From Stramenopiles sp. TOSAG23-2 (Eukaryota), in NCBI GenBank assembly GCA_900128395.1, contig LT649290.1, forward strand, positions 1 to 45,042: a DNA stretch of 45,042 bases. Direction: 5' to 3'. Shown here in pieces: positions 1,094 to 44,123 of the stretch. How positions within the stretch are numbered: the stretch's first letter is position 1; each line of letters opens with the position of its first letter. The notes below the pieces were generated by a model. The model searched no databases. It had not been told where the DNA came from and was given only the letters and a program-made list of their open reading frames with translations. A program made the position numbers and the translations under genes.

Positions 1094-4000
1094 ATGCCAG
1101 ATAAATGGAAGATATTGAAAATATTGAAAGACCATACAGGTAGTGTCTGGTCAGTTGCATTTAATCATGATGGTACAAAGATTGTATCTGGCTCGGATGA
1201 TAATACAATACGTGTATGGAATGTTGATACTGGTGAATGTATATTAACATTGAAAGGTCATACAAATTATGTCACATCTAGTCTGCGTCGTCAGCCTCTT
1301 TCGACTCTTTCGAAAGAAAGATTCTATGTCACATCAGTTGGATTTAATCATGATGGTACAAAGATTGTATCTGGATCGTCTGATAATACAATACGTGTAT
1401 GGAATGTTGATACTGGTGAATGTATATTAACATTGAAAGGTCATACACGTAGTGTCTTATCAGTTGTATTTAATCATGATGGTACAAAGATCGTATCTGG
1501 ATCGTTGGATAAAACAATACGTGTATGGAATGTTGATACTGGTGAATGTATATTAACATTGAAAGGTCATACAGAATATGTCTACTCAGTTGGATTTAAT
1601 CATGATGGTACAAAGATTGTATCTGGATCGTTGGATAAAACAATACGTGTATGGAATGTTGATACTGGTGAATGTATATTAACATTGAAAGGTCATACAA
1701 ATTATGTCACATCTAGTCTGCGTCGTCAGCCTCTTTCGACTCTTTCGAAAGAAAGATTCTATGTCACATCAGTTGGATTTAATCATGATGGTACAAAGAT
1801 TGTATCTGGATCGTCTGATAATACAATACGTGTATGGAATGTTGATACTGGTGAATGTATATTAACATTGAAAGGTCATACAGGTGAAGTCAACTCAGTT
1901 GTATTTAATCATGATGGTACAAAGATTGTATCTGGATCGAAGGATAAAACAATACGTGTATGGAATGTTGATACTGGTGAATGTATATTAACATTGAAAG
2001 GTCATACAGAATATGTCGCATCAGTTGGATTTAATCATGATGGTACAAAGATCGTATCTGGATCGAAAGATGAAACAATACGTGTATGGAATGTTGATAC
2101 TGGTGAATGTATATTAACATTGATTAGTCATACAGGTGAAGTCAACTCAGTTGTATTTAATCATGATGGTACAAAGATTGTATCTGGATCGAAGGATAAA
2201 ACAATACGTGTATGGAATGTTGATACTGGTGAATGTATATTAACATTGAAAAGTCATACAGGTGATCAGTTGGATTTAATCATGATGGTACAAAGATTGT
2301 ATCTGGATCGGGTGATAAAACAATACGTGTATGGAAAGATCAAGACGCCGCCACACGTCCTGCAAAAGTATTACAACTCCTTCCAGAAAACATACGCCCT
2401 ACAGCAAAACTTGTTTTGAAACGCCTACCAAACATTTTAAACCCATTAAAGCAAGCATATACACAAAAACTAAAATTAACCGCACAAGTTGAAACAGCAA
2501 AAAAAACATTGCAACAAAAACAACAAAAACTACAAGATGCACAAAGTCAAATTAAGACTCTTCTTGCTAGTGCAATCAATGCAACCATATTAGTCCAAGT
2601 AACACAACAAGCAAATACAATTATTAATACCGCACAAGCCGAATTACAAAAAGCACAAAAACAACTCAAGGGAAAACAATCCGAACTGAAAAAAGCTCAA
2701 GCAAATTTAAAAGCAGTTATCAAGTCAACAATTACTACTATACAAAATGCTGACAAGGATCGCATTCAAAGATTACAAAACAAATTACAACAAGAAATCA
2801 ATGGACAAACTGGCAATGCATTTATATCCTTAAACAATACCTATGAATTTTGTTTAAATCGATTTATATATTCTTCTGGTCAAAATCGTGATCCAAAAAA
2901 TATTCTATCCTATTTGAACAAAGTTCAAGATCGAAAACAACAATTGCAAGGGAAAAATTTAACACTTCCACAATTACATCGTAAATCCTCAGATACTACT
3001 GGTAAAACAGTTGCTATATCAAATCCAAAACTATTTGATTTTTCATACCTTGCTGCATTGGCAAATTTAAAAGAACGTTCAGGAAAAATTGAAACTAATA
3101 TAGTAAACAGAAATGAAATGTTTTTTGATGTCATTGTGATTGGTGCCGGGGTACATGAACAAATATTTCAAAATACATTACGTTCTGAAAATTCCAAATT
3201 ACAAGTATTAACAATTGAACGTGGAGAAATTCCATGTGAAACATTTTCTGCTGCAAGTGATCGTGTGAATTCAAATAGTAGTGTTCGTATGGCAGATGAA
3301 GATGTTCAAGCAATTCCATCAGTTGGAAATATTAATACTTTTTTTTTAGGTTTGTTACAATTGGATGATGTAACAGCAGATGGCCTTGGACCACTTGGTA
3401 ATTTTGCAAAAGTTGCAACTATTAATCGTTCATTATCAAATAATGATATTTTATTTGGTTGGGAAGTTGTTACAGTGACAGCAAGAGGAAGAAACAATAA
3501 CAGCAACAACAACAACAATATAAATGTCAATTTGCGTGAACCTTTGAAAAGAACAAAGCAATACGAGGTACAAATTCGACGCAGAGGAACGACGAGAAAT
3601 ACAATTACAATATATTGCCCAGTCGTTGTTGATGCTCGTGGTATTGGTGTTCCAAAGTTTCCACCAATTAATTATGGAAATCAGCGTGTGAATACAGTTG
3701 CAACCGATTTTCGACAACAATTTTATGCAAATCCTTCTGTTGAAACGTTTCCAAAAGTAGTTCATTCCAAAGACTTTTATGAAATGACAACACTATTGAA
3801 TGATCCATATGGCCCATTTGCAAATAAAAAAGTTGCTGTAGTGGGTTCTGGTGATTCTGGGAAAACAATTATGGAATTTTTAACTCGAGTTGGCGTTGGT
3901 GCAGCTGGATTTGGTGGTGGGAACATTGCTGGAGGCACAGCTATTCCAATATGGATTGGGCAAAAAGATCGCACACAAGCGGAATATGAAGCTACATCCC

Positions 4001-5043
4001 GTGCACGCTATCGTCCATTAGGTGCAAAATTTCCAAGACGAGCAAGTGACAATGTATTACAAGGTGCCTGCCCATTGATTAAAGCGTTTCCTGGTAGATT
4101 GAATCGAATTACACAGCAACAAAATGGGAAACTAAGCCTTCGAATTAGTCAAAATAATAATACAAATATCGAAGTGGATGTTGTAGTATTAGCAACTGGT
4201 TTATTACCAGATTATACATTATTCCAAAACTTCCCAGGAATAGATTCAAGACGGCAAATAACAAATGAAACGCAAAGCACTGAACGTATTGATTGCGAGC
4301 AACTTGTTGGCGTAAAACGTGTTGATGCTTCTCCATTTGCAATAATTCCATTAAAACGAATAAAAGATTCCAATGTATTTTTTATTGGACCCGGTGGTGG
4401 TGATTTTATTAACAATAATGCTGTATTGTTACGAAAAATTGAAAAAGCAGGGAAAGATTTAGGTAGACCTGGGTTAGGTAAAATTTTTGGAATCAGTGAA
4501 AATGTTGTAGCCATATTTGCATTAGGTCCAATTAGTGAATATACAGCTCGATTCATCGATGTATTTTCACAACCTGATGGACAAACGCGAAATTTACAAC
4601 AAAATATTCCAATAGCACAAAGTGAAATAATTGGACAAGTGAATCGAAATGCACAAGTTGATTTAATTATACCAAATATTTTGCCAAGCAATATGCTTCA
4701 ATCTATAATTTCACGTGTGAATGATCAAGAATTGATTAAAGAATTTATATTACTTCGTGTTTTATATAATTTATTTCCATTCCGATTAAATGATAATCTT
4801 CGTGAGTTAGTCATTAAAATAAGGCAAGATGGAAATACATTGCAGTATAAAATATTGGATTGTCAATTAGATGCCAGTTCAAGAAATGAATTTACAAATA
4901 GGTGTACGAATGATAAATTTTTATCCCAATCGATTATTAATGTGGGTAGGGAAGTAAGAATTCGTATCAATGATTATACTCCTAGTATGAGTTTTGAGGA
5001 TCTTTGTAAGAATGCAGAAGATGTTACCTTTGGTCGTAGGTGA
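1094..5043 (+). CDS. WD40-repeat / coiled-coil / FAD-NAD(P)H-dependent oxidoreductase (class B flavin monooxygenase-like) fusion, about 1318 aa, frameshifted at 2265/2266 (ORFs 1094-2419 and 2416-5043)
   Basis: Repeat 9 lacks 7 nt (ggt ga[agtcaac] tca gtt). From 2266 the frame reads SVGFNHDGTKIVSGSGDKTIRVWKDQDAATRPAKVLQLLPENIRPTAKLVLKRLP and runs directly into the 875-aa ORF, whose listed start is a TTG rather than an ATG. Confidence 0.8.
1268..1337 (+). other. 57-bp in-frame insertion in WD40 repeat 2 (46-bp core plus 11-bp duplication tatgtcacatc); possible GT-AG intron 1281-1337
   Basis: tatgtcacatc at 1268-1278 and 1325-1335; gtctgc...acatcag spans exactly 57 nt. Confidence 0.8.
1703..1772 (+). 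other. Second identical copy of the 57-bp insertion, in WD40 repeat 5; possible intron 1716-1772
   Basis: Identical to 1268-1337 at offset 435 (3x126+57). Confidence 0.8.
3121..4560 (+). other. Two-dinucleotide-binding flavoprotein domain (FMO / lysine-ornithine N-hydroxylase-like) within the fusion gene
   Basis: FDVIVIGAGVHE (FAD Rossmann motif, degenerate), VVDARGIG, VVHSKDF (HSxxY/F motif), KKVAVVGSGDSG (NAD(P)H Rossmann motif) and DVVVLATG occur in canonical order. Confidence 0.75.
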
Positions 5044-5147
5044 AGCAAAACCAAATCTAAAATCAATGTAAGAGAGAAGAGAGAAAGAGAAAATAAATGA
5101 AATAAATGGCCAACCCGTTCAACGAGAATGAACATGATGGAAGGATC

Positions 5148-5699: not shown

Positions 5700-7217
5700 A
5701 TGGATAATAATACAAATGATAACAAAGAAGGAAAAAAACAGGATGATCCTTTGTACAAAACAAAGCAAGCAAGGAATGTAGCTACAATGGTCTTTTTGCA
5801 TTTATTACAAAATTTTATTACTATGCCGGTACGTATGGAAATATTAATGCCATATTTTAATTACGATACCGCTATTCCACTGTATTAAATCGTTCATTAT
5901 TAGGTACCTATTTAATGTCATTAATATTAAATCCATTAATGTTAGAATTATCAAATATATATGGTCTATTCCACTGTATTAAATCGTTCATTATTAGGTA
6001 CCTATTTAATGTCATTAATATTAAATCCATTAATGTTAGAATTATCAAATATATATGGTCGTTTACCAGTGATTCAATTTGGTATGTATTATAGTATAAT
6101 ATTAAAAGCATTTTCGTTAATAAATCCTACTGGTAATATGCAAATACTCACTTCGTTTCTAAGTGCACCAGGTATGGTAACTTTAAATTCATTTAATGTT
6201 TATATATCAGATTTATATAAATCATCAACTAATAGTAGTAAAGAACAAGCGGACATTGATTCAAAACAAATTGCAGTTGCACAATCACAAGTAATGGCAT
6301 ATAAATTTATTGGTTTAGTAGTAGGTCCAGTTGTTGGTGGATATTTATCAAAACGTAATGTACGTTTGCCATATGTAGCTGCTATTGTAGCAGGATTGAT
6401 TGAAATTTATTTAGGGCAAGGTTTAAATGAATATATGCCAATTGAAAAACGAAAAAAACAAATTGATTATCATAATTTAAATCCTTTGAAATTTTTAAAA
6501 TTATTTTTGTCAGGTGGTAAATTAATTTCACTTTCCATAATGCATGTATTGTATTTAATAACAAATCCACGTGGATATGGGACGACGGAAGATTTAGTAC
6601 GAACGGTATCATATGGAAGTGTCAATTTTGATGTGATGCAACGTAGTTATTTAAAATCATTTTCTAGTTTTGTTTCCGTTTTGGGATATGGATTTGGTGG
6701 CAAAATTTTAAAACAAATTGGTGTAGCAAAAATGTTTATTACATCATCGTATACATTGATATTACAACGTTTATATCAATGGTTATATTGCAAATCGGAA
6801 ATTTTAAAACAAATTGGTGTAGCAAAAATGTTTATTACATCATCGTATACATTGATATTACAACGTTTATATCAATGGTTATATTGCAAATCGGTATCGA
6901 TTGATTATATTTTAAATGTAATTAATGTTTCAAAACCATTAACAGATGTTTCATCCAATGTAATGTTGCGTCAAGAAGCACGTGAACAAGGTATTAAACC
7001 AGATGAATTGGAAATTATGCTAGGTAATTTAGAAGAAATGTCACTAGTTTTTTCCTATCCATGTTGGGCAATTGTATATGGTTGGTGTTTACGTAGCGGT
7101 GATGTTCGTCGATTTTATGGTATTTTAGCTGGATTGCATGTGCTGCAAAATATATTAGGTTTGTATGTTTTGAAAGGAGGTGGTACACGCTGCATTAATG
7201 AGAAGAGCAACAAATAA
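5700..7217 (+). CDS. Major facilitator superfamily transporter (DHA1/TetA-like), interrupted by duplications at 5872-6059 and 6703-6894
   Basis: ORFs 5700-5888 and 5961-7217; multiple hydrophobic helices; motif A-like LSNIYGRLPV; antiporter motif C-like GLVVGPVVGGYL. Confidence 0.75.
5872..6059. repeat. Exact 94-bp tandem duplication in the MFS gene
   Basis: ctattccactg...tatatggt at 5872-5965 and 5966-6059. Confidence 0.9.
6703..6894. repeat. Exact 96-bp in-frame tandem duplication in the MFS gene
   Basis: Copies at 6703-6798 and 6799-6894; ILKQIGVAKMFITSSYTLILQRLYQWLYCKS appears twice. Confidence 0.95.
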
Positions 7218-7702: not shown

Positions 7703-10700
7703 TCAACAATCAGTTATACTTGCTTTGCATACTGGGCAAGAGCTTTTATAACCCAACCATTCATCAATGCAATTTGCATGAAATTGATGTAAACATGGCA
7801 ATGTACGTAGACTATCCCCTTCTTTATAATCTTCCATGCATACCGTACATGATTTACTACAATTTGCATGAAATTGATGTAAACATGGCAATGTACGTAG
7901 ACTATCCCCTTCTTTATAATCTTCCATGCATACCGTACATGATTTACTAGTACCAGTATGTTTTGCAGATGGTACATAAACAAACTTGGGTAATCTTGTA
8001 ATTTCACTGACGGATGCACCACCTAATTTACGTCTAAAATTGCTACTAATATTATTACTACCACTACTATTATTATTACTACTACTTCTATTATGAACAT
8101 TCAGACTATTGTTATTTCTATTACGACCGATTCTTCCACCACTAACCCTGTTCATCAACAAAGGTGCAGGTATACCACGTGGCCTACCGTCTCTACCAAC
8201 ATTTCCAGGTCTATTATTCATAAATGATTGATATCGCTCTTCAATCGTATTATTTGTATTATTGTTGCGATTATTTGTACTGCTTTCACCTAATACTAAT
8301 TCAATCAACGCTTCCTCTGACATATCATTTACATCATCTACTGTCATTTCTAAATTATTTGCATTTGCAAAGGAATTTTGCAGTTGCCTTGCAAACTCTT
8401 CATCTGCACTAATTTGTCGTTCACGTTCCACATTTAATCGTGGTGGCGATAATCTCGTATTGTTGTTACTGTCATTTCTAAATTATTTGCATTTGCAAAG
8501 GAATTTTGCAGTTGCCTTGCAAACTCTTCATCTGCACTAATTTGTCGTTCACGTTCCACATTTAATCGTGGTGGCGATAATCTCGTATTGTTGTTACTGA
8601 CATTACCAATCGCAGCAAATAATGATGGCGGTGGCAATGATCTATTTGGGCGTGCAGTACTTTGGTTGCTACTGCTGTTGTTGTTATTGAAATTTTGGTA
8701 GATTTCCGGTGGTGGAGATAAGCTGATACGCGTATTTCTTACTTCTTTTTCGTTTATATATGCCCTTCCCCAGCTTAATTTCAAAACTTGGGCGTGCAGT
8801 ACTTTGGTTGCTACTGCTGTTGTTGTTATTGAAATTTTGGTAGATTTCCGGTGGTGGAGATAAGCTGATACGCGTATTTCTTACTTCTTTTTCGTTTATA
8901 TATGCCCTTCCCCAGCTTAATTTCAAAACATAAAATTTATTACCTTCATATACCGTTTCTCGTTCAACACGTCCTTCACCAAACGTTGTTTGCATACATA
9001 GACGTGCACTCATACTTGTATTGTAATACATATTATTTTCATCATTCCCATTTCTATCACCGTTCATATTTTCATTCAACATAGCTGATTGTGGCAAGAT
9101 ACGATCATTTACAATATCCTCAACAACTTGATCCAACGTCATGTTACTTGATAAACCATGGTCGATCCATTTGCATAATGTAAATATATCATGCGATGGA
9201 AACATTTCAGTCAATAAAGACATCCATTGTGTCCTTTCTTCATCATTGCCATTGGAATTGTTATTCATTGAGCTTTGCCTGCTATATCGTCTTGGTGGTG
9301 GTGGTGGTCTGAGCGGTGGTGGTGGTGGTGGCTGTGAAAATGTGACATTATTATTTCAGTCAATAAAGACATCCATTGTGTCCTTTCTTCATCATTGCCA
9401 TTGGAATTGTTATTCATTGAGCTTTGCCTGCTATATCGTCTTGGTGGTGGTGGTGGTCTGAGCGGTGGTGGTGGTGGTGGCTGTGAAAATGTGACATTAT
9501 TATTTTGATCAGTATTGTTTCCAACGTTTCCATTCTCATTGTCACCGGCACCATCGTCATCACCATCGTCATCACCATCATCAAGGCCTTCTACTTTGAT
9601 GGAGCTTCTTTTTACTTCTCTGTCCATGTAACCATCATCGTACAACACTGCAAATGTTCGATCTTGTTGATTTATTCTTACAATTACACCAGGATATCAT
9701 CACCATCATCAAGGCCTTCTACTTTGATGGAGCTTCTTTTTACTTCTCTGTCCATGTAACCATCATCGTACAACACTGCAAATGTTCGATCTTGTTGATT
9801 TATTCTTACAATTACACCAGGATAGTATCCAGGAAAAGAACGTTGTGTACCTTCTTTCCATAATGCCGTGATGCGATCTCCTACCACAATATCAGCAGTA
9901 TTACGTCCTCCTTCTTGTTCCGAGTTGCTGTTCATATTATAAGTTGGCAAGCGTCCATCGGCATACATATAACCATCGCCAAATTCATCTTCTTCTTCAT
10001 CATACATTTCATCTTCATCATTACCTAATAGATGCCTTGGTTTTGATGAGGTGACAAAGCGACGTTCACATGCTTTCTTCGTTGGCTCAGCAATATTTGG
10101 CAAATACGTACCTTTGCAACACTCTGGGCAAACGACAATTTGTGTAGTTTTATTACATGATTGATTATTCTTGTGGAACAAGTTATCATCTTCGTTATCA
10201 GATGGATTTGGTTCGATTTGAATCATATGACCACATTCAATGTTCATGCATTTTAAATATGGAGGAGAATCAAAGTTACGAGATTTCAATGCATTTTCAA
10301 TGGCATTTTGGATAGTATTATTTGCACGTCTCGTCGTTAACGCATTAGCTTTTTTCTTCCCATCTTTTTTCTTATCAATGATGCCACTCTCTGTCTCTAT
10401 TTCATCATCTTCTACGATTAAAATCTCTTTCGCAATATTTGACAATACAATTGATACACGGAAAAATTCCCCAATGCATGAATTCATTTCATCTACTAAA
10501 TTTAAATCGCTACGCTTCAATGTGATGATGCGATCTCTTACATCAACATCTGTATTACGAGTGGCTATTTCTTTTTGTTTTTCTTCTTCACCCCAATCAC
10601 TATGTTCTTTTACAATGTCCCGATGATGACCTACTATATCTTCTTCATCCAATGGCATGTTATCATTATCGTAGCTGCCGTATTCATCTTCACTTTCATC

Positions 10701-12597
10701 ACTATCGACAATATTTGTTGGTCGTTTAAAATCACAACATGAAGATGTACGTAAGATTGCATCAAATAATCGTACACCCGGTCTACCATTTGGTAAATGA
10801 TATATACGTATTTGAAATTCTGAATCTACTTCAATATTTGGATGGAATGATATAACATTATCCAACCACGTAGCATTACGTACACCGCCAATCATGCTTG
10901 TAAATAATAATTCATTTTTCGAATTCATAATCATTACATATGGTCTACACCCAGTCACTGTTACATGTGGTATACTATGTAATAAAATTGTCCGTAATTT
11001 CATTCTAGATTTTGGAGGTAAAGCTGATATTTTTATCCCCAACATAATTTGTGCTGTTGTTATTCATATTAATTAATAATCTTTCTTGTTTATGCGCATA
11101 TAATAAATCACCTAATAATCTAGATTTCTTTAAAAATTCTGCTTTATCAAACTTCGAATATATTCCTAACTTTTGCTTTACGTAATCAACCATTTTTTGA
11201 CCATTACTTGTTCTTCCATTGCTAACTTTGTTGATATTATTAGTATTATTGCTATTACTTTTACTTTTATTTTTCTTTCGTTTAGGCGATTTTAATCTCC
11301 GTATTGGCGTTACTCTTGTATTTTGCTTCATTACACCTAATGCATAACGCATTGATTCTTCCACTGATGGGTCATTGGACATACGTAAATAATATGCTGT
11401 TGCTATTGTATGCATGACAACAGTGGAGGATCCTAACAAGACAATGGCATGCTGTTTATGTGGATATTTAACAAAATTATTTCTGTAATTATTGCTCTCA
11501 TGATTGATGCTTATATTTGCATCGTTTGTGAAATATGGGCCAAAATAATAAAGCCAATCTGCAATATCACTTGTTACTTTAAATAAGATATTCCATGATG
11601 GTCCTAAATGATTTCCATTATGCGATGCTTGCAAAATGTTTTGTTTATTATATTCATTTGCATTTAATAATCGTTTCATTTTCTCAGGGCAAACATCGTC
11701 TTCCTCTTCTGTATTTCGTGGAATGCCACAATCAAAAACTTTATAAATATTTGTTTTAGAACAAAATTTTCCAATACTATTTAAAATTTTACGTGCATTG
11801 GATGTATTTCGATTCGATATCAATGCATCAGCTAAGATAGCTGTGCTATTTGGATCTAATATATAAAAATTATCCATAAAACGTATCGTATGCGGTGGTG
11901 CCTTCGTAGTATTGCCATTACTACTGCCATTGCTTGTTATGTAACTCTTGCCCCCAACGCTACTATTGCTTTTTGAACGCTTTAGCAATGAATATAAGGA
12001 TAAACGTTGTTTTGTTGGTGATTGTGGTGGTGTTGCTAATGAAAAATGTTCTTGTTCTTTAAAATGATGAGATGACGAAGGACTTTGTGGTGGTGTCACC
12101 ATACCACGTAGTTCTGGTGTAGTAAATGGAGAACCATTTCGACTATTGTAGCCCGTATTTCCATCATAGTTACTTGGATCATGGTTCCCATCATCATTAT
12201 TATCAAAATTATCTTCATATTCCACATCGTACGAGTCATCATTAGTGGCTAAAGAACGTGCTCTTGCACGTGATGCTGAGGAACTACTACTACTACCACG
12301 TCGCAATAAGGACCACATTTTTGAACCAATTTTTGCGCCAAATGAACGCCTACGTTTTGGTGATATTTGTGTAATATTTGGTACACTACTTGAACGAACT
12401 GTTTTTGAACCAATTTTTGCGCCAAATGAACGCCTACGTTTTGGTGATATTTGTGTAATATTTGGTACACTACTTGAACGAACTGGGCGTGTATTATATG
12501 TCACGTTGTTTCTATGTCTATTAACATTATTTAGTCCTACTACTTCTTCTTCATTATTATTATTAGAAGAAGAAGATGCGGATACAAAAATCGACAT
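7703..12597 (-). CDS. Multidomain RING-H2 E3 ubiquitin ligase (PTEN/tensin-type C2, Cys cluster, Tudor, Pro-rich, CUE-like, MIU/UIM-like, RING-H2), about 1390 aa after collapsing duplications
   Basis: Six same-strand ORFs (11005-12597, 9684-11045, 9265-9648, 8684-9268, 8434-8784, 7703-8431) join into one frame when duplications of 84, 128, 149, 142, 128 and 90 bp and one base near 11030-11040 are removed. Motifs: [19 protein letters not shown] (C2), [23 protein letters not shown] (Tudor), LTEMFP (CUE), DEEFARQLQ (MIU), [14 protein letters not shown] (UIM), [29 protein letters not shown] (RING-H2). Confidence 0.8.
7770..9824. repeat. Five exact tandem duplications: 90 bp (7770/7860), 128 bp (8339/8467), 142 bp (8646/8788), 149 bp (9204/9353), 128 bp (9569/9697)
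   Basis: Head-to-tail identical copies read directly from the sequence; the four that are not multiples of three each account for an ORF break. Confidence 0.92.
12318..12485. repeat. Exact 84-bp in-frame tandem duplication
   Basis: Copies start at 12318 and 12402; [27 protein letters not shown] appears twice. Confidence 0.93.
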
Positions 12598-25146: not shown

Positions 25147-28100
25147 TTAATCATCATCAATCGCACCATTGCCCCATTTCACGGCAGTTCGTAATCGTTT
25201 TTCTAAAATTTCTTGTGATGTATATCTTGGAATATCAATTTGAAAGAAACAAGTATGCCCTGTTGGCAATGCATTGTCATCTCCACTTTTAGGATGAACT
25301 GCAAATTTGTGTGTCCATCCATCTTTAGCAACTGGTAATCTAGAACGCCCCCAACAAAATCTTAAGAAATTTTCTCGTTCCTCTTCATCCAACGCTTCTA
25401 ACGATTTCCATAACCAACCTTGAAATTGCAAATTGTTTTCATACGAATCTTTAAATTCGGTATGCTCTTTTAACAAATCTATATCAAAACCTTTTTTACC
25501 ACATACATTTAATTCCAATTCTTCCCACGTCCATAAATGTAACATGCCAACAGGTACAATAGTTGATATACCAGCTTTAATTGCTAAACATTGTTGTTTC
25601 AACTCATTGATTCGATATTGTTCGCACATTGAAACGTATTCGACATAATTTGAGCCAGTTACAGGCACTTCATCCCCACCTTTCATCAATTCTTTCTCCT
25701 CACCTGCATTATTAATGACAACATGGGATAATTTAAACCCTTCAATATCGTTTGCATCACATTTTAAAATACGCTCGTTGATTTGATAAAAACTTTCATC
25801 GATGGCTTTTAAATCAAAACGATTAATTTCTTCCGATACCAATATTTTCCATACCAACGATGGTAGATCAAATGGCAACGGATTATTTATACGCAACGCA
25901 ATTCCCATTATTTTGCCAACGAATCGCCACATTTGTAAATGATCATCAGAAATATTTTCAGGATTAGGCACCAGTTTATCACGCCCAAATTCACCGCTAT
26001 TGTTTCTATTATTTGGCACTTTTACCAACATCATTACATGTTCCGCCCATAAATCCGTCACGCATTGAGTCAATGTATCTCGAAATGGGCCACCTTGATC
26101 TATGGAGCTTTCACCAACAAAATCTACTTTCCATGTTCCATATGGTCCACCCATTTCCTTTGATTTATGCCTCAACATTTTAGGGTCGATATAGTGCAAT
26201 CTTTTAAATATTTGACCAAAAATAGATTTATTCAACGTTTCCACAGTTGCCGTTTTCCCACGCAATGAATATGTAGCAAGTCGATCTATTGTTATCGATT
26301 GATAATTATCCGCATTTGCATATGTGCTTTTTAATGTATCTTGCCATAATAATAATTTCAGATTCCATAATAGAAATTGACGATATTCCATTATCTGTTT
26401 TAAAAGAGATAATTTAGGAACATCAGGCTCGAAACTTATAAAATCAGTTAACGTAACGAAGGACTTGTTAATTGCAAACAATATGCATGTACCCCATTGT
26501 AAAATTTCCGGGGAAACATCATTCAATGCTTTAAATCGCGATGTTACATTGGAATCAAACTGTACTGATAATACTAAATCTTTCAACTGCGTGTTTGAAG
26601 ATGATGTTGATTTTTTCTTTAAAAGATGATTTAAACATTGCACTAATGATTTCATAATTGAAAACGTTAATTTATCAAATGTTGGTACTTTCGTTGTTTC
26701 TTTTTCAGATGCAAACATTTGTAAGTTTTCATTATTTTGAAATCCCAATTCACGAACGGTTTTAACTACATATTGTTTCTCTCCTTTTGTAATAGTAGCA
26801 CCTTCGGTAGTGTTTCCTTCCACATTATCTTGATCAATACTTTCATCTGAAATCACTACATCGCCATAATTATTATTGTTTGTATTATTGCCACTGATTT
26901 TTTCGCACAAACTGAAGCAACATAAAATATCATTCAACCAAGCAGGCAAAGATGCTAAAACCCTTGCATCCATTTTACTAAGCACTAAATACAAACGTAC
27001 CAAATTAGCCATATATTTACTTCGACGACTAGATTTGGATTTAAATAATGAATCCAATTGCCCATCAAAATGGTTTAATACTCTATCAATCAATGGTTTC
27101 TCCCAGACTTTGAAATTTTGTTGTACTAAGGTTACCATGCGCACTAGCACTTCTAGTCCTTCTGAACGCAATGTACCTTCGCTTAAAGATATAAATGATA
27201 GCAATGCTGCTAAAATAGAAGAAGAATGTAAACGTAAAAATTCAGGCACGTCTAAAACTAAACCTAACAACCAAAAACCAAACTTTGGATTTGGATTTTC
27301 AATTGCGCTTCTATCATCTATTACATCCAAATGTTCAGAAGTTAACGTGCCTTTGTAAACACTATTCATGGTACATATAGAGCGCATTAAAACAAAAATT
27401 GATTCCGCAAGCACGGCCCGAGATAGTGATTTTGACTCTGGGCTATCTTGCTTTAATATTTGTTGCATGTACGTGCCTAATAAATCAATCTCAGAATCTG
27501 AACTTGATGCAACTAATAATTGACATACCTTGAAAATATTTGATACATCACCATTTAATGCCTTTACCAACCGCGCCGAATTATTTTTAGACAACTCCAA
27601 TAGACGTAAAGTTGCTCTTCGTGCATATAAGATTTCCAATGCACTTGCCGTATGAATCGTTTGCGACATTAACGATAATCGCCACAACGGCCCTTGCGCG
27701 CATACTACTTTTTGTGCATTGTCACACAACTTTGAACTTTGGGGAATTAAATGATCAGCTGTTTCAAAAGAACCATCAAATGCATTTGATAAAGCGCAGC
27801 TGCATATGTCACCAACATCGCCAACAAATTCAATAGCTTTTTTAAGAGATTTATGCCGTTTACTATTCGGACTAGTTACATTACTTCCTGTATCATTTAC
27901 ACTGCTTTTAGACTCTTGATTTCTATTTATGCCATCATTTCCATTATTCAATAATCGAAACATATTTACCAATTCACCAACACGTTTTTTTCCATCCGAT
28001 TTCTCTCCTGGTACTGATACTTGAAAATCGTTTGAATCGAAAAATGTCGATGCCAATTCAAACTCACGTTTTACTGTGGCATGTAAGATACGTGTTGTCT

Positions 28101-31100
28101 CAGATTCGCTTTTCATGTTTCGTATTGTCACATCATCTTTATCATAATACAATGTTACAGCCGGGTATAGTACTTTGCCACGTATATTTGTATATTTAAA
28201 GCCAACCATTTCACCATTAATTCCCCAAGTCAATGTTCCTAAAACTGTATCAACGTATACTGTTACAACATCCCCGCCTTGGTACTTTGTACTCGTAGCG
28301 TGTGATTTTTCATTATTATGAAATGCATCGCCAGCATTATACAGTCCCCAACTCTCGCTATTTGATCCGACAAAGCTGGTTAAAGACGTTTTCTTTGTCC
28401 CGACACCAATGTTACAATATCGATTTAATTTATTAACACGTACTTCCCAACTGAATTTTCCAGAGCTTAATGGAATGTCTCCTAGCACCGTGCGCCCTTG
28501 CGCAGATGTGGACGTTTGCCTAACTCGAGATGGATCTATAGGATCTATTTTCAATGCCGAATGGCATAAGATGGAGTTCCAATACATTCTCTCTGGACTC
28601 GAAATTCGAAAATCTTTTGAATCTGCTATCCAATCTGGATGACAAATTAAGCCATGCGAACTTGCTTTCACATCATATGCAACATTTCCAACTCCAACCA
28701 TCATTGGGTACCAGTGTATTAACCCTTTCATTGGTTTTCGAGTTGGTACAGGTTCCCTTGATGTATTACTTAAATCGCTTTGAGTTAATCCTCTTTCCCA
28801 GACACGGCATTCTCCAATTTGACCATTAAAGGATTTGAATTTAGTTTCATTTTCGTCACAACCTATCGTAAATTGCCCTTGCACTTTACCTGGCTCGAAA
28901 ATAGAAGGCATTTGACAAATTATTTTTGAATTCTTGAAAAATGTCCATATACCCACCGTTAGCTTGGTTTTGGTAGCAGTACTCGTTTCAACACTGTCAC
29001 CGTCTGATCCAAGTGCTACAAATGGGTGTATTTGTGAAGGACGCAATGCAGTCTCATGGATTTGGCATTGCGAAAGATACGTGAAATTCAAGAAAAATGA
29101 TAATGTTTCGATTTCGCTATTGTACAATACAGTTATTGTATCGCCATTGCTACAAGGTACTTGAGGCGGATCATCGACTGGGTAATCGACACCGCAAATG
29201 TGAATTGAATCAATTTTCCTTGTACTTATGTAACAAATACGCTTGGATAATGGTAAAGTATCATCCTCAAAAATTACACCAATCCTAATTCCACTTTTTC
29301 TGCTTACTATGTTGATATCCCAACAATGCAAATAAGGTACATTATCAGGTATATTCGACAAGATAATTGGTCCTAAAATGGGTTTTAATATTTTTTTGGC
29401 TTTAAAAGTATCCTGTGGGTTATCAAAGACTTTAAATGTATCCCCCGCCGGTTCCCATTGTTGTATACGTTTGGAAGGGCGGATAAATGAGAAAGCAATG
29501 TGTTGCCACACATTTTCAACTGTCCCTGGAGTTGTGTCATTTGACATTTCATCAGATTCAAATAAATCGTATGTTAAAATATCAGATATTAACTTCTCCT
29601 TTCCAGAACTTCCATTATTTCTTTCCATTCCAGTCAAAATAAATTTAGTATTAGACATTGAAAACAATAACGCATTCGATGCTACATCCCCAACGCGCAA
29701 AATACAGCCCTGGTCCCTTTCTATGTTTTCCGTTCTCAGCCATGTCTCAAAAGTAAAATCAGCTGTTTTCGAGAATCCAAGATAGCCAAAGTTTATAAAA
29801 CTAGATTTATTTAATCGCAAAGCGACTTCCGTGTTTTGTTTTCGTAGAAATAATGTACATTCTCCATCCATTGACGTACCAATTAAATCCAATGATGACG
29901 AGGACAGCATAGATATTTCAAACGTACATTTTTCAAGTTGTTTCGCATTACTACTGCTTGTGCAATAGCCAGACAATTCTACCGTGGAGTTATCCGCCAA
30001 TTTACCATTGATTTGGCCAGCTTTTTGTAAGCTCAAAAAGTTCATATGGCCAGAAAAGTCTTTAACATGACCATTGGAATTGTCAACTTGAATATATAAA
30101 CGGACTAATTCAACCTCAGCACTAGCCTTGCAGCATATACCAACATATACACTTTTATCTTGCAACACATCTTGAAAATTGTACGGGTATGTCTTATTAG
30201 ATGTCTTTACTGATATGTCGTTGCTAACTTTAGTGCGCACACCACCCACATTGGATTGTAACATGGTAATTGATGTGTTTGCACCGGCTATTTCAATAAA
30301 TGGTTGCAAAACAGTTGCTGGGATCTGAGTCATTGTATGCGCTAACGAACCATTTACGTACAAGGAGAGCCGACTCAGTTTATAATCGCGTTCAACTTTT
30401 ACCACATCGTTTTCTTTCCATATAGGCATAGTTTCTACATCGACAGCTTTTTCAAATAACGAACAGAAATTCTTATCGGTATAAATCGATAAATCGCTTG
30501 TTTTTCCTTCCGCATTTGCTTCCTCCCCCTTTTTCTTTTTCCGTGGTGCTAGTGTTAAATTATGAAGTTCAGATACAGTTCGCACTAGCGGTTCAGGTGA
30601 TATACCAGATGCAGAACTGGATCCCCCACCTAGAAGGACATCATCGACAGATTCACTGTTGCTTTTGCTTATAATGTCATCCATGTCTCGCAATGTTTGC
30701 AACATATAACGCGATGTTTGTTTATTTATATCGATCGGCATTAATTTAAAATTTTCTCTTGCCTTCTTTCGCTTTGAATAAATAATTCCAAAGTAATCAT
30801 AGACTGCTTTATAACCTTGTGGTGGAGCATATTTCAATTTGCCAGTCCCCCCGAAAAATACTCGTATTTTCATTCTTCCATGACCACTTAATGTGAAGGC
30901 TGGGTATAAACCACCTGTGAAATTACAGTTTACAAATGCATCGCCTTGATACTCATTGTTTACATAAAATCCCATGGTTTTCTTATCAATGTCAACTGCT
31001 AAACCGATTCGGTCGCCATTTTCCCATTTTTTCCCATATGCAGTATCAGCAGCATTCCAAACACGTTTTCTATACCCGTCCACACCCCAACTGTGCTTAC

Positions 31101-34100
31101 AGTCGCCAACACCTTTGCCCACACCATCGTAACATTTAAATTCTTCATCTGCCCACCCCAATTGTGGACAGCTCCCACTCACATCACCAACAACATCAAT
31201 TTCGTAATACCATTTTCCAGATTTTAGACTTATGTCATTTAAACGCCACGTAGGAAAATGCCTTTTCACGGAGCAAAGGAATGGACCAGATGGATCTTCG
31301 CACACAACACTTTGCTGCTGTTTAATGGTGTCATCCACATTGCAAATGTACGACACATGTAACTTTTGAACTTCCTTTGCTTCATTTGCTAACCGGTTCG
31401 TAGCTTTGAACATTTTGCCTTGGCTATTCCATGCAAAAATATCATTTGATTCAAGCTCTTCGGAAATATCAATATTTTCTTTCATTAATCCACAACGAAT
31501 GAAATTTCCAGCTTCGACATTATGATCTGCATGTTGCTTTAGATTATTTATTTTAAACTCAAACGACGCATTTGGTTGAGCACTTATCGTATTTGCCAAC
31601 GTTGCCTGTCCATGCCAATTGACGCCATAACCTTTTTTCATTAGTTCACTCGTCTCATGGACAGTATAACTTTTCCTTCCTAAACCTGGTACGTGAAACA
31701 AATCCATGGTCAATGATTGCGGCCAGACTTCCCCCAATACAATTCCGGCCAGTTTTGGCCTTTCAAAATCACACATTTCACAATTTTGAACATCTGTTTC
31801 ATTCGGTGTTTCACACTGTGGACACTCCCACTCGTCCCCTAAATCACTGTTAACGCGATATGTTGTTTGGTCATCAATTTCTAATAACGAACCGGTGGAA
31901 AAGACTTGAAAGTGACCATCATCGGCTTTCTCCGACACTTGCAACATAGCAGGTGATGTCAATTTATTGATTTCAACTTGCGACAAGTTAATATCACGTA
32001 AAGACATTTTCAATTCTTCCATTTTTTGATTTAAATCATCAAAACTAGGAAATTCATTTTGGATCAAAACACTTGTTGACGCAACCCGTAGCAATTCACG
32101 CAGGCACGTATCATCTATAATCAAATCGTTCCCTTCTTTGCATAAACTATCAATAACGGAGCTAATAAATTGCATTAAACGGTATCTATACGTCGTTCCA
32201 ATTACTGTCAGTGATGCAGACTTCAATTGGAGCAATTGAACGGCGTTGTTAAAGATCGTTTTTAAGTTGGAGGAGTTAATTGTATCAGAAATTACAGAGG
32301 CTTCACAGGAAAGTTCAAATTGATCTAATTCCATGTCTTCAACCACTTCTCCATCCGCCAAGACAACCGATGCACAGTTCTTTTGTTCATCTAAATACAC
32401 AATACGTCCTTGCCTATTTGTCGGAAGCTTGCTATTTTTATCAGTACTAAGAATTTTAACTATGGAGCCAATTCGAATTTTGTAAGAAGTGGTATTTAGT
32501 AACGTCAGCGCAGATAAAACACGCCAAATGTCATAAGTACCATTATCCTTTTGCTCTAGCCCCAATTCCTTATCACCATTATTAAACATACGTTGCATCT
32601 CCCCACATAATGTTTTCACGACAAACACAGACCATAATGATGACGACAAAAGATTTTGAAATAATGTACCGATCTCGAGTATAAATCTAGCAGAAAATTC
32701 AGAATAGCATTGTGCATTTAAAGCATCGTTTTCGTCACGGTTACCTCCACTTTCGATTAAACAATCTAAACTTACATAAATCGAAAACAACCGTTGAACG
32801 ACAGTTCCCGGAGTTAAATTTTTACAAAACATTTCATCATTTTCAATATTTTGTGGTATAATTTCCATCAGTAACGAACTTAAAATTTTAATGGCTTTGA
32901 ACTTATTTGCAGGTGCAGTAGAATTCAAAATATCAAATGTATTTATATCGCCCTTGTTGTCGCTATCATGACCTTCAATGATCGAAAGCAAAATTGAAAC
33001 TAACCTCAAGGATGCTAATGATTGTTTTGGTTCTTGTGTTAATGTGCACCGATACATGAGATCCAATATCCATTCCATATCGACGTGTAGTTTGTTGATT
33101 GAAGAACTCAACATACTTTTCGTCGCAGTATTGTCATTTATCATCATAATGTTTTTCACCATGTTCATATCACTACATACAATAATAGATGTTGCTAAAC
33201 CTTCAAACATAAAATTATCGATATCATGTAAGTACTTTTCTGCAATTTCAGTCGCCGTAGCAGATGTTGCATAATGAGGTGCCATAGAAGGTACTCCGAC
33301 GTACAATGGTAAGCGCGTTGAAACCGTAGCGTCATCCTTACCATCACTTGATGCTGGTTGATGAACAGCATTTGAAATATCAATTATTGGTATATTATCT
33401 GTATTGCTTTTAGTGCCTTCTGAAATATCACCGTTTTTCGTTTCCGCAACATTGTTTCCGTATGTTATATCTGTAGTTCCAGCAATTTTTCCATTTATGA
33501 ATATATACAATTGATCACTACCTTTCGGCAAACGCTTCCTAGCAAAGGTTAGTGATACCCATTGGTTTATTTCTACTTCAACATCTGATTGGACCTCAGT
33601 TATTTGTACTTCTTTAGATCTTCTCACTTTCGTTTTAAATTGAACATGAGCTGTTTTCTTATCTATGAACGCACAACTTTGCGTTTTATCGTTCTCTGTA
33701 CATTTATGTACATTTCCAGTTTTAAATAGCACCGTATCTTGCTCTTTCGATAAGTGATGTAAGTAAATTTTCATAGAAATAACATACGAAAAATCCATGT
33801 TTGGTGGGCGGGAGATGACAATACCTTTAACGGATTCTTTAGAACCAAATTGAATCGGCATAGTCGCTAGATAACGTTTATATTTCAAATTGGAATTTTC
33901 AAGCCCTGGTTCGTTCTGGTTTCTCACTCGTAGTTGCTGCATCAAAATCTCAAGATGACCAGCCATCAATGAAAATAAATTTTGCTTCAGAACAGATGAA
34001 AATATTTTACTTTCATTAATAGACGAAAAAAGTAAAAATTCATACAAATTTAACGTCGTTGGTGAAAGATTTGATTTAGCTATCGCCCCATTATCATTGG

Positions 34101-37100
34101 CATCTACTGATTTTGCCCCTTGTTCAAGTAATTGCTTTAATGCTGTAAACAATTGATCTGAAATATCATAACGATTATCAAAAACATATCGCACACAAAG
34201 TGCTTTAATGCAAAAGTAAAACAAATTATCACTCGTTTTGGAATTTTTATCAAATGTATTTGTATTCAGTAATACGCTGATGATACGTTGCGACAATGCA
34301 AGATGAGCTTCTAGAATTTGATCTATATTATTCGCACCACAACCGGCTACCATATCACAAGCAGACCATGAAATTACCATAGAATTTGAATCATCTGCTC
34401 CACCTCCGTTTTTTTGTAATGAAACTTGCGTGAAATTTCTTAAAATGATCGTTGCCAATAAACGTCCAGTGCTAGTAGTGCTTGATCCCCCAAAGTCATC
34501 TAATAATTCATCTACAGGAAAGACCACTTTGACAAGCGAATTCAAGACTTTTAATCCTTTAATTCGTTGCATCGCGCGTAAGCGTCTTTGTTTCAAACAA
34601 TATCCTATGTCTGGGGCATTAGCTCTAGACAACGCAAAACTCATTGCCGTATCCCTAGGCAACTCTGTTGCTTTCTTCTCATTTAAAAGCAAAGATCTTT
34701 CTTGTAACATTTTTCCAAGTTCACTTTTTTCTAAAAAATTTTCTTGAAATGCTTGCCAACTTCGTTTCGTTGGGGTATGTGCTAATTGGTGTTTTAATGA
34801 TCGCCGTGTAATCCCCTCTTCTCCAGTTGGATCGTATGGTGCAAACCGCAATAAAATATCCAAGCGTTTGTCTACTTGCCCACAAAGTTTGTCATAGCTT
34901 ATGCCAGCCAATTGCTCATGTTCACGTATGAACCATTGTCGTTTTTCTTGAACAAATTCCCATAAATCTAGAAGCTCTGCAGGAACAGTATCGCCATCAG
35001 TAGCGCATATTTCATACCCAAGTGCTTTATTAAATTTTTGTTCGTGTACAAGCACGGCCACATAACACTTGCGCAACATTCGATTTACAACTTCTCCACC
35101 TTTTCGCTGCAGCATTTGCATGTACATGTTCGGTTTATATTCTTCTTTCAATACAGAAAGTAATTTTGAGTTCTTCATTTTTCCACCATCTAAAAATGAA
35201 CTTAAAAAAGTAGATTCTTCTTCTATAGATGATACCGAGCGTTTTAAGGATGGGGGGGTCAAAGGATCCTTTGCAGCCATGGGTGTCTTTGGAATCGCCA
35301 TTTTATTTCCATTGATGGACATACTGCCACGGAAAACCAGGGATGAAAGCCATTTCTCGTTTTTAATTTCAAGTTCTGTCGCGGCACTACCTTTGACCAA
35401 CGTTGATGCAAAACGAGATGTTGTCCACGTTTGATATTGTGTTAGCTTGAATAATATCCCAACTTCGGATAATACATCTTCCTCATCTCCGATGCTTTCC
35501 TCGCGCGCAAGTGGGACCTTTGGTTTTGTTTTATCTCCAGTTGGTCTGTAATGGTTTCTCAAAGCAGTAGGGGCATTCACATGGGCGTACCAACCTGGTA
35601 ATAACGAACCGCGTCGATCACTATTACTGTAGCTAGTAAATTTCACTTCATCTCCCACAGCATGCTGAGATCTGGAGCCAGAAATATAATAAATAGTACG
35701 CTGCGGTGCCCCAATTTTACGTGTCCGGATGTTCAAACTACCTTGTGGGTTGTACAATGCCGGAAACTCGCCAGCATTAATTTGTAAACCTGGTCCATCT
35801 ACTTTCAATTTAACAATTTCATCCAACACAATCGTCTTTCTCTCGATTGGCACAGTTGCTTCCCTCTCTAGTCGAAATTTACTTTCATTTACACGAGTGA
35901 AAACACGCACGAGGAGATTTGATTCCCCTTGCGGCAATGAGCCAAATTTAGCACTCAATCCATCAATCATACCGCTTTTCGTTGCCGGATAATCAATCAA
36001 TGCATATGCAGTTCCCCACGTAGCTTGGTCTGGAATATCATCATCAGAGGGACCTAGAAAGTAGGGAAAGCCAGGTATGGATACTTGCTTTGTCTCCTTC
36101 AGCGTAGATCGTTGCACAAGTTTATACGCAATTCTAGATGGAACATCGTTGCAAATTTCAATTAAAGTGATTGATAAGGACGAACAGGATTGGACTAATT
36201 TTTGTGCAGCTAAACAATCAGTATCTAATGATGTACAAAACACCAGTGCTTGAAATAACAGACGGCTTAGCAAAATACGAACTAATTTCGACATTGCCCA
36301 TAATTTAGACGGTAGTTTATCACCAAGCGTGTTTTGATAATTTTGTAAAATATTTTTAACAACATCGAAGAATGTGGACAAATGCGAAATCAATATGTTG
36401 AACAATGGATTGACATCGGTGCTAGCATCATCATCAATATCATCTACCTTTGTATCAAATGAATTTCTATTCCTAGATGGCGTACGTAGATTATCGGGGA
36501 CTCTATTCGATGATTCTTCCGATAATGGTGTGCTAGGGCTACTATACCGATTACCTTCAGTAACTGACATTAAATACGAATGTATGAGTAGCAAAAATTC
36601 CACAGTTTCTTTAGACGTATCACTTACATCTGGAAACTGAAAATCATTCGTAGAATTCAGCAAAAATGTTAAATTCGTGTCAAAATCATTTGATATGCAT
36701 TGCAAAATGGAATCTAAAAACTGGTGTAATAAAATGCTACTGTTACCAAAGTTATCTTGTAATCGCCCTGCACTTATTGTAGCATGGTCCACATTAACAG
36801 GTAAAAACAATGATTTGATCAAATTTAAATCGTAACATCTTGACAATAAATGTTTTGATATTATATTATAAGCAGCAGGTTTCATTGGAAAAACATTTGA
36901 CTTGCTATTTTGAGCTAAAGTAGGATCCATAATTTGTGTCAAGATTCCTATTTTCTCCGACCACGTCTGTACAAAAATTTCCAATGAAACTGTGAATATA
37001 TCCGCAGCAAGCCCAATCAATGGATCTAAATCCTTACTATCACTACCCAAAATTTCTACTAAAATACGTTTTAAATTTTGTTGATATTTTTTTGTCAAAA

Positions 37101-43847: not shown

Positions 43848-44123
43848 TTTGGTCCCCACACACAGTCCGTTTCATCTTCACACTTCCCTTTCTTGCAGCT
43901 CTCTCTCCAATAATTAATGATGATCTTTAGATGGATCGTGGAAATGGAATTTCTCTGCACCAGTAGCATCCATAACAATATNNNNNNNNTTTGGTCCCCA
44001 CACACAGTCCGTTTCATCTTCACACTTCCCTTTCTTGCAGCTCTCTCTCCAATAATTAATGATGATCTTTAGATGGATCGTGGAAATGGAATTTCTCTGC
44101 ACCAGTAGCATCCATAACAATAT
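43848..44123. repeat. 134-bp exact duplication across an 8-N scaffold gap (assembly artefact)
   Basis: 43848-43981 equals 43990-44123, separated by N at 43982-43989. Confidence 0.97.

Follow-up and report, generated by a model that had tools for sequence, protein, structure and literature searches.

The NWD and HNWD proteins of the fungus Podospora anserina (het-e, het-d and het-r) combine a NACHT domain with WD40 repeats of high internal conservation (PMC1805685, PMC12222747, PMC4986451). The WRAP domain of Npun_R6612 of Nostoc punctiforme (PDB 2YMU) is a recently amplified propeller, whose relatives are carried on STAND ATPases (PMC6805158, PMC9218822). Highly-Repetitive WD40 proteins, defined by an internal identity cut-off of 0.7, are reported from prokaryotes, fungi and protists (Hu et al. 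2017, PMC5587647); and in a stramenopile, the brown alga Ectocarpus, exon-shuffled and fast-diversifying LRR/TPR proteins are described as candidate receptors (PMC3341825). Conserved repeats with hypervariable contact residues are a mark of fast-evolving fungal recognition receptors, and probably of those of filamentous bacteria as well. The array analysed here is of the highly internally conserved WD40 type known from fungi and bacteria, in this case in a marine protist, and it is hypervariable at six codons of its repeat unit.

Gene layout and the WD40 array

The array lies in a window of 45,042 nt, the whole stretch of DNA that was analysed; the genome has 33% G+C. By its sterol reductase open reading frame the protein atlas assigns it to the eukaryotes, at no finer rank. 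Positions 1094-5043 of the plus strand probably form a single gene, whose host would be a unicellular marine eukaryote with an AT-rich, intron-poor genome; this belongs to the explanation preferred below. The gene is laid out as follows.

1094..1132, plus strand: 13-residue leader with the start codon of the open reading frame; the array start in locus L041 has a similar leader
1133..1258, plus strand: WD40 unit 1, a 126-nt unit
1259..1441, plus strand: WD40 unit 2, 183 nt, with a 57-nt in-frame insert at 1279-1335
1442..1567, plus strand: WD40 unit 3, a 126-nt unit
1568..1693, plus strand: WD40 unit 4, a 126-nt unit
1694..1876, plus strand: WD40 unit 5, the same as unit 2, insert (1714-1770) included
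1877..2002, plus strand: WD40 unit 6, a 126-nt unit
2003..2128, plus strand: WD40 unit 7, a 126-nt unit
2129..2254, plus strand: WD40 unit 8, the same as unit 6 but for codon 42
2255..2334, plus strand: WD40 unit 9, strands a-c only, 7 nt missing after 2265
2335..3100, plus strand: Q/K-rich linker, from the translation
3100..5043, plus strand: putative flavoenzyme-like module with two predicted dinucleotide-binding motifs; stop codon at 5041-5043

Cut from the His codon, 1133-2334 consists of nine WD40 units of 126 nt each, inserts and the shortened unit 9 apart; nine is an unusual count of blades. A Pfam profile search matches PF00400 in 8 stretches at 323.9 bits (cut-off 27), and H1, S19/S21, D23 and W29, the tetrad residues, show no variation among the eight full units. 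Mean amino-acid identity between blades is 87.3% (range 81-100%; 8 x 42 residues, inserts removed), above the values given for highly internally conserved repeats (>85% over at least 100 residues; Dyrka 2014) and for Highly-Repetitive ones (at least 0.7; Hu 2017). The leader probably supplies the outer strand that would close the last blade.

The variable codons, numbered from the His, are 3, 4, 6, 9, 22 and 24, all multi-allelic and all non-synonymous, so placed that hypervariable pairs surround a conserved Val (d-a loop and strand a) and a conserved Asp (b-c turn). Silent variation is seen at codon 17 (ATT/ATC) and codon 20 (GGC/GGA), codons 41 and 42 are altered in units 7 and 8, and every other codon of the eight full units is invariant. 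Units 2 and 5 are identical across 183 nt, and units 6 and 8 are a single codon apart. The earlier note had described variation concentrated at six codons against near-zero synonymous divergence, and Nei-Gojobori counts on the eight full units bear this out: pN is 0.554 at the six codons, and at the other 36 pS is 0.032 and pN 0.0097. Its codon lists were reproduced letter for letter, and the block combinations that it quoted are correct (RS-L-V with L-K, EY-Y-G with L-K, EY-A-G with K-E). The clustering in six codons exceeds chance, since these 6 of the 42 codons hold 19 or more of the 23 minimal changes (binomial p = 4.3e-13; p = 2.3e-6 once multiplied by all choices of six codons).

A single-sequence AlphaFold model of the array (pLDDT 78.3) has four strands per unit; it is the one confident model of five, at pLDDT 78 vs 35-48 for the others. 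Hotspots of the propeller's top face follow a published rule (Wu 2012), a bulge motif (V/L/I)-R1-R2-(V/L/I) together with the residue before the tetrad Asp. By this sequence rule codon 6 is assigned to R1, codon 4 to R1-2 and codon 22 to D-1; codons 3 and 24 adjoin these hotspot codons, and the model places them in the d-a loop and in the b-c turn. Codon 9 lies within strand a and encodes almost only G, A or V; it is probably a packing site off the top face. The earlier note placed most of the variable positions on the top, ligand-binding face; this holds for codons 3, 4, 6, 22 and 24 and probably not for codon 9, surface clustering being judged by the sequence rule rather than from coordinates.

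The linker, predicted from the sequence to be probably helical, is the most polymorphic single-copy part of the gene (36 differences in 2283-3467 vs 4 in 3534-5100, against a contig of run X3). The C-terminal module appears distantly like the N-hydroxylating flavin monooxygenases: PF13434 is matched at 17.2 bits (E 0.003), under its cut-off of 21.3, and the best Foldseek match is SidA/PvdA (6x0k_A; E 3.5e-11, TM 0.34/0.49), obtained with a low-confidence model of mean pLDDT 58.9. Homologues of the module, at 35-42% identity, lack WD40 repeats, and two Gly-rich motifs are kept in 5-6 of six of them. In the search for WD40-fused relatives of the module, none of the six long representatives matched any Pfam family and none was recorded for P0001-P0006; solved structures found by sequence for 2266-5043 matched only 25-45 WD40 residues. 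No NACHT or NB-ARC domain was found at 1094-2419 among the best 25 of 59 matching families, all beta-propeller, or in the Pfam search of 2416-5043, where Lys_Orn_oxgnase is the sole match; the families reported for the gene do not include HET. Rfam gives no match anywhere in the window.

Assembly of the array

The window is a scaffolded assembly of short-read type, so that its unit order, unit number and "reassortment" are provisional. It holds nine exact 2.0-copy tandem duplications of 84-149 bp, one of them around a run of N, which indicates scaffolding artefacts. Illumina assemblies of such arrays are unreliable by a published test, and their chimeric assembly from short reads is documented (PMC12222747). 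It is quite possible, at somewhat less than an even chance, that although the unit pattern is real, the order, blade number, duplicates, inserts, frameshift and reassortment are constructs of short-read assembly and scaffolding, which would be compatible with the explanation preferred below.

Direct repeats of 11 nt bound both in-frame 57-nt inserts, that of unit 2 at 1268-1278 and 1325-1335; the unit 2 insert encodes a low-confidence loop (AlphaFold pLDDT <50, residues 57-75). A search of the window and the 69 loci located the insert core at 1282 and 1717 and nowhere else. As an intron the 57-nt insert was rejected, since none of 12 equivalent excisions starts with GT and ends with AG. In unit 9 the 7-nt deletion after 2265 breaks the frame, and beyond it the unit is in frame with the downstream open reading frame; the 7 missing letters are present in all five listed contigs that cross 2259-2265. 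From 2266 to the first nucleotide-binding motif, where the conserved N-terminal part of homologues falls, there is no ATG, so that the downstream frame depends on the WD40 part for its start. As assembled, the gene is either a recent pseudogene or contains assembly errors, namely the 7-nt deletion and the 57-nt inserts. The pairs 2=5 and 6=8 also speak for a construct, since no other six-codon combination recurs in the family set of 32 units described below.

The listed contigs of four sequencing runs stop inside the repeat and none spans the array. None of those listed joins block 1 of unit 9 to the unique flank; that of run X3 begins at 2283 and that of X4 at 2299. Yet a unit's two variable blocks are 36 nt apart, inside one read, and depths argue against a wholly artificial array. 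In X3, block contigs have depths about 3, 1.5 and 1.3 times that of the flank, and some blocks are truly multi-copy; total depth at the variable block is 10117 vs 968.5 in the flank, which fits about ten units, summed depth not being copy number. A 60-nt contig of the constant part (2201-2260) has a depth of 8150 vs the same 968.5, and its two listed variants 20.7 and 3.4. In X3, X4 and X5, respectively, the summed depth of the repeat bin reaches 22, 108 and some 300 times the flank value, a hint of further copies rather than a copy number. An RNA run, X15, gives contigs on 3657-3909, 3944-4275 and 4593-4845 and single WD40 units, which is not proof of transcription; no X15 contig bridges array and flank.

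Related units and probable selection on the six codons

Nine of 69 metagenome loci and five database proteins carry the same 126-nt unit, variable at the same six codons, and these two sources served for comparison. For the family set, to which units of the window itself belong, units were anchored on codons 10-18 and filtered for at least 30 of the 36 constant residues; 9 of 41 were dropped, leaving a set of 32. Since anchor and filter select for it, part of the amino-acid conservation outside the six codons is built into the set, an effect that does not reach silent sites or the six codons themselves. Across the 32 units, amino-acid entropy is 1.9-3.3 bits at the six codons and no more than 1.6 bits elsewhere, and 30 distinct six-codon combinations occur. 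In the five database proteins (17 units) the three most variable positions are 4, 22 and 6.

The unit scaffold is common to at least four gene architectures. In L002 and L012 a NACHT-like NPHP3_N domain (89-91 bits; cut-off 24.8) precedes the same WD40 units, and L002 has ankyrin repeats as well; HET is not among the best 25 families for either locus. The close homologue P0127 has a precomputed PF05729 match, and the NACHT relatives include one protein labelled by its source as from a MAST-4 stramenopile. In the literature searched we found no report linking MAST-4 with such repeats, the one co-mention of MAST-4 and WD40 being of WD40 enrichment only, nor were such repeats found reported in the papers searched on NLR or NACHT proteins of protists and stramenopiles. 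Run X3 contains the gene on an 8101-nt contig and also a WD40 contig that continues into the array end typical of L002 and L038.

Silent distance from the window to L002, L012, L001, L038 and L040 is 0.017-0.044, vs 0.032 inside the window; within-locus silent distance is smaller than between-locus distance (p = 0.0006; loci from different samples). Concerted evolution, which the earlier note had inferred, is plausible in view of the equality of between-gene and within-array distances. Its third inference, repeat shuffling, was not borne out: four-gamete conflicts are present and the two variable blocks are uncorrelated (Mantel r 0.02-0.04), results given equally by saturation or by chimeric short-read assembly.

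Divided by pS at the other 36, pN at the six codons gives 17 for the window and 4.3 for the full set of 32 units; among 21 core units, distinct but closely related, pN at the six is 13.5 times background pS (bootstrap 9.2-24.7). A tree-based count puts the six-codon excess at 3.2-7.0 times, and the pooled tree count is N 122 vs S 9 (p = 7.9e-5). Site by site, the binomial test reaches significance at two codons, 22 (p = 0.002) and 9 (p = 0.014); codons 3, 4, 6 and 24 give p = 0.12-0.39. Diversifying selection, as proposed earlier, is therefore favoured by the counts, but the strict site-wise test finds it at two codons of the six.

We consider it distinctly unlikely that the array is a recent amplification from one blade, its differences representing ordinary early differentiation with neither homogenisation nor selection for diversity. 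There are almost no silent changes between blades, as for WRAP (PMC6805158, PMC9218822), the best solved relative by sequence is the WRAP protein (2ymu_A, E 5.7e-121), and the frameshift of unit 9 and an in-frame TAG in L002 (4334-4336) recall the disrupted arrays typical of the WRAP branch (PMC9218822); but a pS of 0.03-0.04 is too low for a neutral pN of 0.53-0.55 with as many as 11 residues per site at the six codons, the scaffold is shared by several architectures, and more diverged arrays of the family exist (within-locus pS 0.15-0.42 in L005, L036 and L041).

Neutral drift at six unconstrained loop positions is highly improbable: although these codons lie in or beside loops of the AlphaFold model, and relatives such as P0008 and L041 tolerate loop insertions, drift should leave pN near the silent level of 0.03-0.04 rather than at the 0.53-0.55 observed, and residue choice is restricted, the second base being A or G at codon 3 in 31 of 31 and at codon 4 in 29 of 31 distinct units. 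We know of no DGR-type system in eukaryotes. That a dedicated mutator, such as a DGR-type retroelement, rewrites the codons is scarcely credible, for while DGR-diversified sensors occur in multicellular bacteria (PMC10907252), and codons 3, 4 and 22, which vary in their first two bases and end in T in 24-25 of 31 units, faintly recall adenine-directed mutagenesis of AAY codons, T-ending codons are usual in a 33% G+C genome, codons 6, 9 and 24 depart from the pattern, no template-like invariant copy was seen, and Pfam scans of 12 of the 13 distinct window open reading frames of at least 200 aa gave no reverse transcriptase family.

The explanation that we prefer, and hold to be probable, is a shared pool of blades with a uniform scaffold and with top-face residues diversified by selection on the ligand-binding surface. 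Several genes of the same lineage would take their blades from one stock of near-identical 126-nt units; some of these genes encode proteins of NLR type with a NACHT-like NTPase, WD40 units and, in some, ankyrin repeats. Unequal crossing-over or gene conversion, acting inside genes and from one gene to another, would probably maintain the uniform scaffold, and diversifying selection would keep the top-face residues different from blade to blade (codons 3, 4 and 6 at the d-a loop and the beginning of strand a, 22 and 24 in the b-c turn). In the present gene the variable propeller, most likely a recognition domain for a fast-changing partner, would be joined through the long linker to the flavoenzyme-like module in place of a NOD.

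Meaning and comparison with known systems

If true, the same design in an abundant, uncultured marine protist would carry receptor diversification of this kind beyond fungi and multicellular bacteria: variation falls at the same residue positions, and NLR-type genes have these units in common with a gene of quite different architecture. Such proteins would then be candidates for host-virus or predator-prey recognition in ocean picoeukaryotes. A bolder reading, which we regard as unlikely, is that of an uncultured marine heterotrophic flagellate with a cassette-based recognition repertoire, in which a single pool of exchangeable hypervariable blades would supply NACHT-WD40-ankyrin receptors of NLR type as well as NOD-less fusions. 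In the present fusion the propeller, on capturing its ligand, would regulate a flavoenzyme-like effector by way of the long helical linker; a free-living picoeukaryote would then have a system resembling innate immunity or self/non-self recognition, possibly directed against viruses or prey. A practical warning also follows: unit order and number of such arrays are untrustworthy in short-read or single-cell assemblies.

The Ectocarpus receptors differ in being built of LRR/TPR repeats, with exon shuffling as the described mechanism. Against the catalogue of Hu et al. (2017), internal identity here is 0.87, over the 0.7 cut-off; as described, that catalogue is drawn up by identity alone, not by hypervariable sites. 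The WRAP arrays are alike in their near-identical blades with few or no silent changes, in their association with STAND NTPases and in the frequency of frameshifted or stopped copies, and their main variable site (Trp/Arg) aligns, read by eye from an alignment, with codon 6. Unlike the present array, WRAP is bacterial and C-terminal, shows 10 differences in 14 blades where six codons here are near saturation, and is interpreted as recent amplification rather than maintained diversity.

The Podospora NWD genes differ in host, the present one being a marine protist, and in layout, since here the array is N-terminal, without NACHT or HET, and followed by the flavoenzyme-like module; codons 3 and 9 are strongly variable here too. 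The likenesses are closer. Units there are also of 42 codons and >80% identical, 55 combinations occur in 69 units (30 in 32 here), units are common to genes with different other domains, and some members are broken. The NACHT-like domain and WD40 units stand in the same order in L002 and L012. The positively selected Podospora codons 7, 9, 25 and 27 are codons 4, 6, 22 and 24 here (offset 3), flanking the conserved Val and Asp. These shared units and the matching hotspot and Podospora positions make this a highly internally conserved WD40 array, a new example of a known surface diversification.

Variable codons of the WD40 array

The open frame at 1094-2419 of the window encodes a product that matches WD40 (PF00400) in Pfam at 323.9 bits over 8 stretches. 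We cut the array at the His codon, taken as codon 1 of a 126-nt unit, and obtained nine units:

1133, 1259, 1442, 1568, 1694, 1877, 2003, 2129, 2255, forward strand: starts of the nine WD40 units
1279-1335 and 1714-1770: one 57-nt in-frame insert, present in unit 2 and again in unit 5 and delimited by an 11-nt direct repeat

Recut in this way, the array returned every codon list of the earlier note correctly. Codons 3, 4, 6, 9, 22 and 24 are multi-allelic and all their changes are non-synonymous; synonymous variation is seen at codons 17 and 20, codons 41 and 42 are altered in units 7 and 8, and the remaining codons do not vary. At least 19 of the 23 changes lie within these 6 of 42 codons (p = 2.3e-6, corrected for codon choice). 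In the eight full units pN is 0.554 at the six codons, against pS 0.032 and pN 0.0097 at the other 36, bearing out the claim that change is concentrated at six codons with low synonymous divergence.

Over 183 nt, units 2 and 5 do not differ. Their insert has G+C above its surroundings, includes a 10-nt palindrome, and is modelled as a low-confidence loop; no further copy was found in the window or in 69 metagenome loci, and a GT-AG intron was ruled out.

Proposed selection and homogenisation among related units

Scanning metagenome contigs for the unit yielded those 69 loci, nine of which (L001, L002, L005, L012, L031, L036, L038, L040, L041) have units whose DNA is 85-96% identical to that of the window's units. 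The closest database proteins with this unit are P0125 (75% identity) and P0008 (71%), followed by P0038, P0066 and P0073 (55-58%); in 17 units of these five proteins variation is highest at three positions, 4, 22 and 6.

From 41 anchored units we kept the 32 that were full-length, free of stops and matched 30 or more of the 36 constant residues. The six codons have entropies of 1.9-3.3 bits, and no other codon exceeds 1.6 bits, anchor and filter biasing amino-acid conservation outside the six codons and leaving these and the silent sites unbiased; 30 of the 32 six-codon combinations are distinct. The ratio of pN at the six codons to pS at the other 36 is 4.3 for all 32 units, and 13.5 (bootstrap 9.2-24.7) for a closely related set of 21 distinct units. 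By parsimony count on a FastTree tree, the ratio of dN to the background silent rate is 3.2-7.0 at the six codons and does not exceed 2.4 outside them. The diversifying selection proposed earlier is supported by the pooled count (N 122 vs S 9, p = 7.9e-5), but singly only codons 22 and 9 reach significance.

Codon 3 has A or G as second base in all 31 distinct units of the window and the nine loci, and codon 4 in 29 of them; the third base of both is mostly T, and the residues are therefore limited to Gly, Tyr, Trp and polar or charged ones. Base usage at the variable codons does not fit adenine-directed mutagenesis.

Silent distance from the window's units to those of L002, L012, L001, L038 and L040 (0.017-0.044) equals that within the window (0.032). 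Overall it is smaller within loci than between them (0.074 vs 0.135, p = 0.0006); at the six codons no within-locus likeness was found (p = 0.19). Together with the six-codon diversity, this pattern fits a scaffold that would be homogenised across units while the contact residues are kept diverse. Recent amplification alone cannot explain the array, since near-saturated change at six codons stands beside a pS of 0.03, and drift at unconstrained loops fails on the same contrast. Repeat shuffling, also suggested in the earlier note, is compatible with the four-gamete conflicts between variable blocks and a Mantel r of 0.02-0.04, but saturation or chimeric assembly gives an indistinguishable pattern.

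Gene architecture and assembly

In unit 9, 7 nt are missing after 2265 (window 2259-2266), which breaks the frame between the array and the downstream module: from the start codon the frame meets a stop at 2417-2419, and the remainder of unit 9 shares its frame with an 875-codon ORF ending at 5043. The missing letters are present in all five listed contigs of other runs crossing 2259-2266, their assignment to unit 9 being impossible. Because this ORF has no ATG upstream of its first nucleotide-binding motif, and the homologues' conserved N-terminal part falls in that ATG-free stretch, the original gene almost certainly encoded one protein: leader, nine blades, Q/K-rich linker, and a module with two dinucleotide-binding motifs.

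This C-terminal module only distantly resembles N-hydroxylating flavin monooxygenases; it scores under the cut-off of their Pfam family, and Foldseek returned SidA/PvdA at E about 1e-11 from a query model with a pLDDT of only 58.9. The WD40 part is absent from its relatives, 6 in one search and 253 representative clusters in another, and from all six long relatives examined. A contig of sequencing run X3 differs from the window at 36 positions in the linker (2335-3467) and 4 in the enzyme-like part (3534-5100), with at least 17 affected codons non-synonymous and at least 9 synonymous among the differences listed. The AT-rich region upstream of the WD40 gene holds a 252-bp tandem repeat (79-554, 1.9 copies, 94% identity).

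In loci L002 and L012 window-type units follow a NACHT-like NTPase (NPHP3_N, 89-91 bits), and in L002 ankyrin repeats come after them; the L002 gene has an in-frame TAG (4334-4336) in place of the Lys codon in one WD40 unit. Among the close relatives of the NTPase part is one that a source labels MAST-4 stramenopile. Run X3 includes the window's gene at 97-99.7% identity, and also a unit contig continuing into the array end typical of L002 and L038. Two array genes lie in tandem on the single contig of L005 (2-694 and 766-1872), and both share with L040 (792-1124) a short tail directly after the last Trp. In some family members, such as P0008, an insertion of 7 residues lengthens the c-d loop of several blades, and a metagenome contig of run X5 has the same insertion between joints near 2325/2228.

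The window (G+C 33%) has one unbroken frame each for a tubulin, a syndetin-like protein, a sterol reductase, a mitochondrial carrier and a 5090-residue HECT ligase. Marine and seawater metagenome runs from 12 studies contain 31-mers of the window. It also holds nine tandem duplications (84-149 bp, 2.0-2.1 copies, 99-100% identity). The ligase and the duplications lie at:

25147-40419, reverse strand: HECT ubiquitin ligase with Malectin and SPRY domains, unbroken 5090-codon ORF
5872-6060, 6703-6894, 7770-7949, 8339-8604, 8646-8929: tandem duplications, first five
9204-9505, 9569-9824, 12318-12485, 43848-44123: tandem duplications, last four

The last duplication encloses the window's sole N run (43982-43989), and all nine resemble joins made in scaffolding or gap closing. 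ORFs contain several of them, one doubling a RING finger, and the length of some is not divisible by three.

Contigs listed from the four runs compared break inside the WD40 repeat, and Illumina assemblies are reported not to recover such arrays correctly (Ament-Velasquez et al. 2025, PMC12222747); the order and number of units are therefore provisional, as are the unit duplicates, the inserts and the deletion. At k-mer level, run X3 does bear out the constancy of the 60-nt segment 2201-2260, which there forms one contig at depth 8150 (single-copy flank 968.5), with two listed variants at depths of 20.7 and 3.4.

The blade and known WD40 arrays

In the model, strands a, b, c and d span codons 5-10, 16-21, 25-30 and 36-41. 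A sequence rule names R1, R1-2 and D-1 as three general top-face hotspots (Wu et al. 2012), by which codons 6, 4 and 22, respectively, are the predicted hotspots, with codons 3 and 24 as their neighbours. A top-face position, as expected for the variable sites, is accordingly predicted for these five, but codon 9 lies inside strand a, has mostly G, A or V, and is probably a packing site. We infer that the propeller serves as a recognition domain.

In the NWD family of Podospora, four codons are described as positively selected, 7, 9, 25 and 27; they sit on either side of the purified codons 8 and 26, within the d-a loop and b-c turn at the propeller top, and yield 55 combinations among 69 units (Paoletti et al. 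2007). With an offset of three they correspond to window codons 4, 6, 22 and 24. Such repeats are described as enriched in fungal NLRs and rare elsewhere (Dyrka et al. 2014), and highly repetitive WD40 proteins are recorded from prokaryotes, fungi and protists (Hu et al. 2017, PMC5587647). The best solved relative of the window array is the bacterial WRAP propeller 2YMU, of which the Lupas group reports frequent disrupted copies (PMC6805158, PMC9218822). The array type is thus already known; what is new is its host and its NOD-less fusion to a flavoenzyme-like module.
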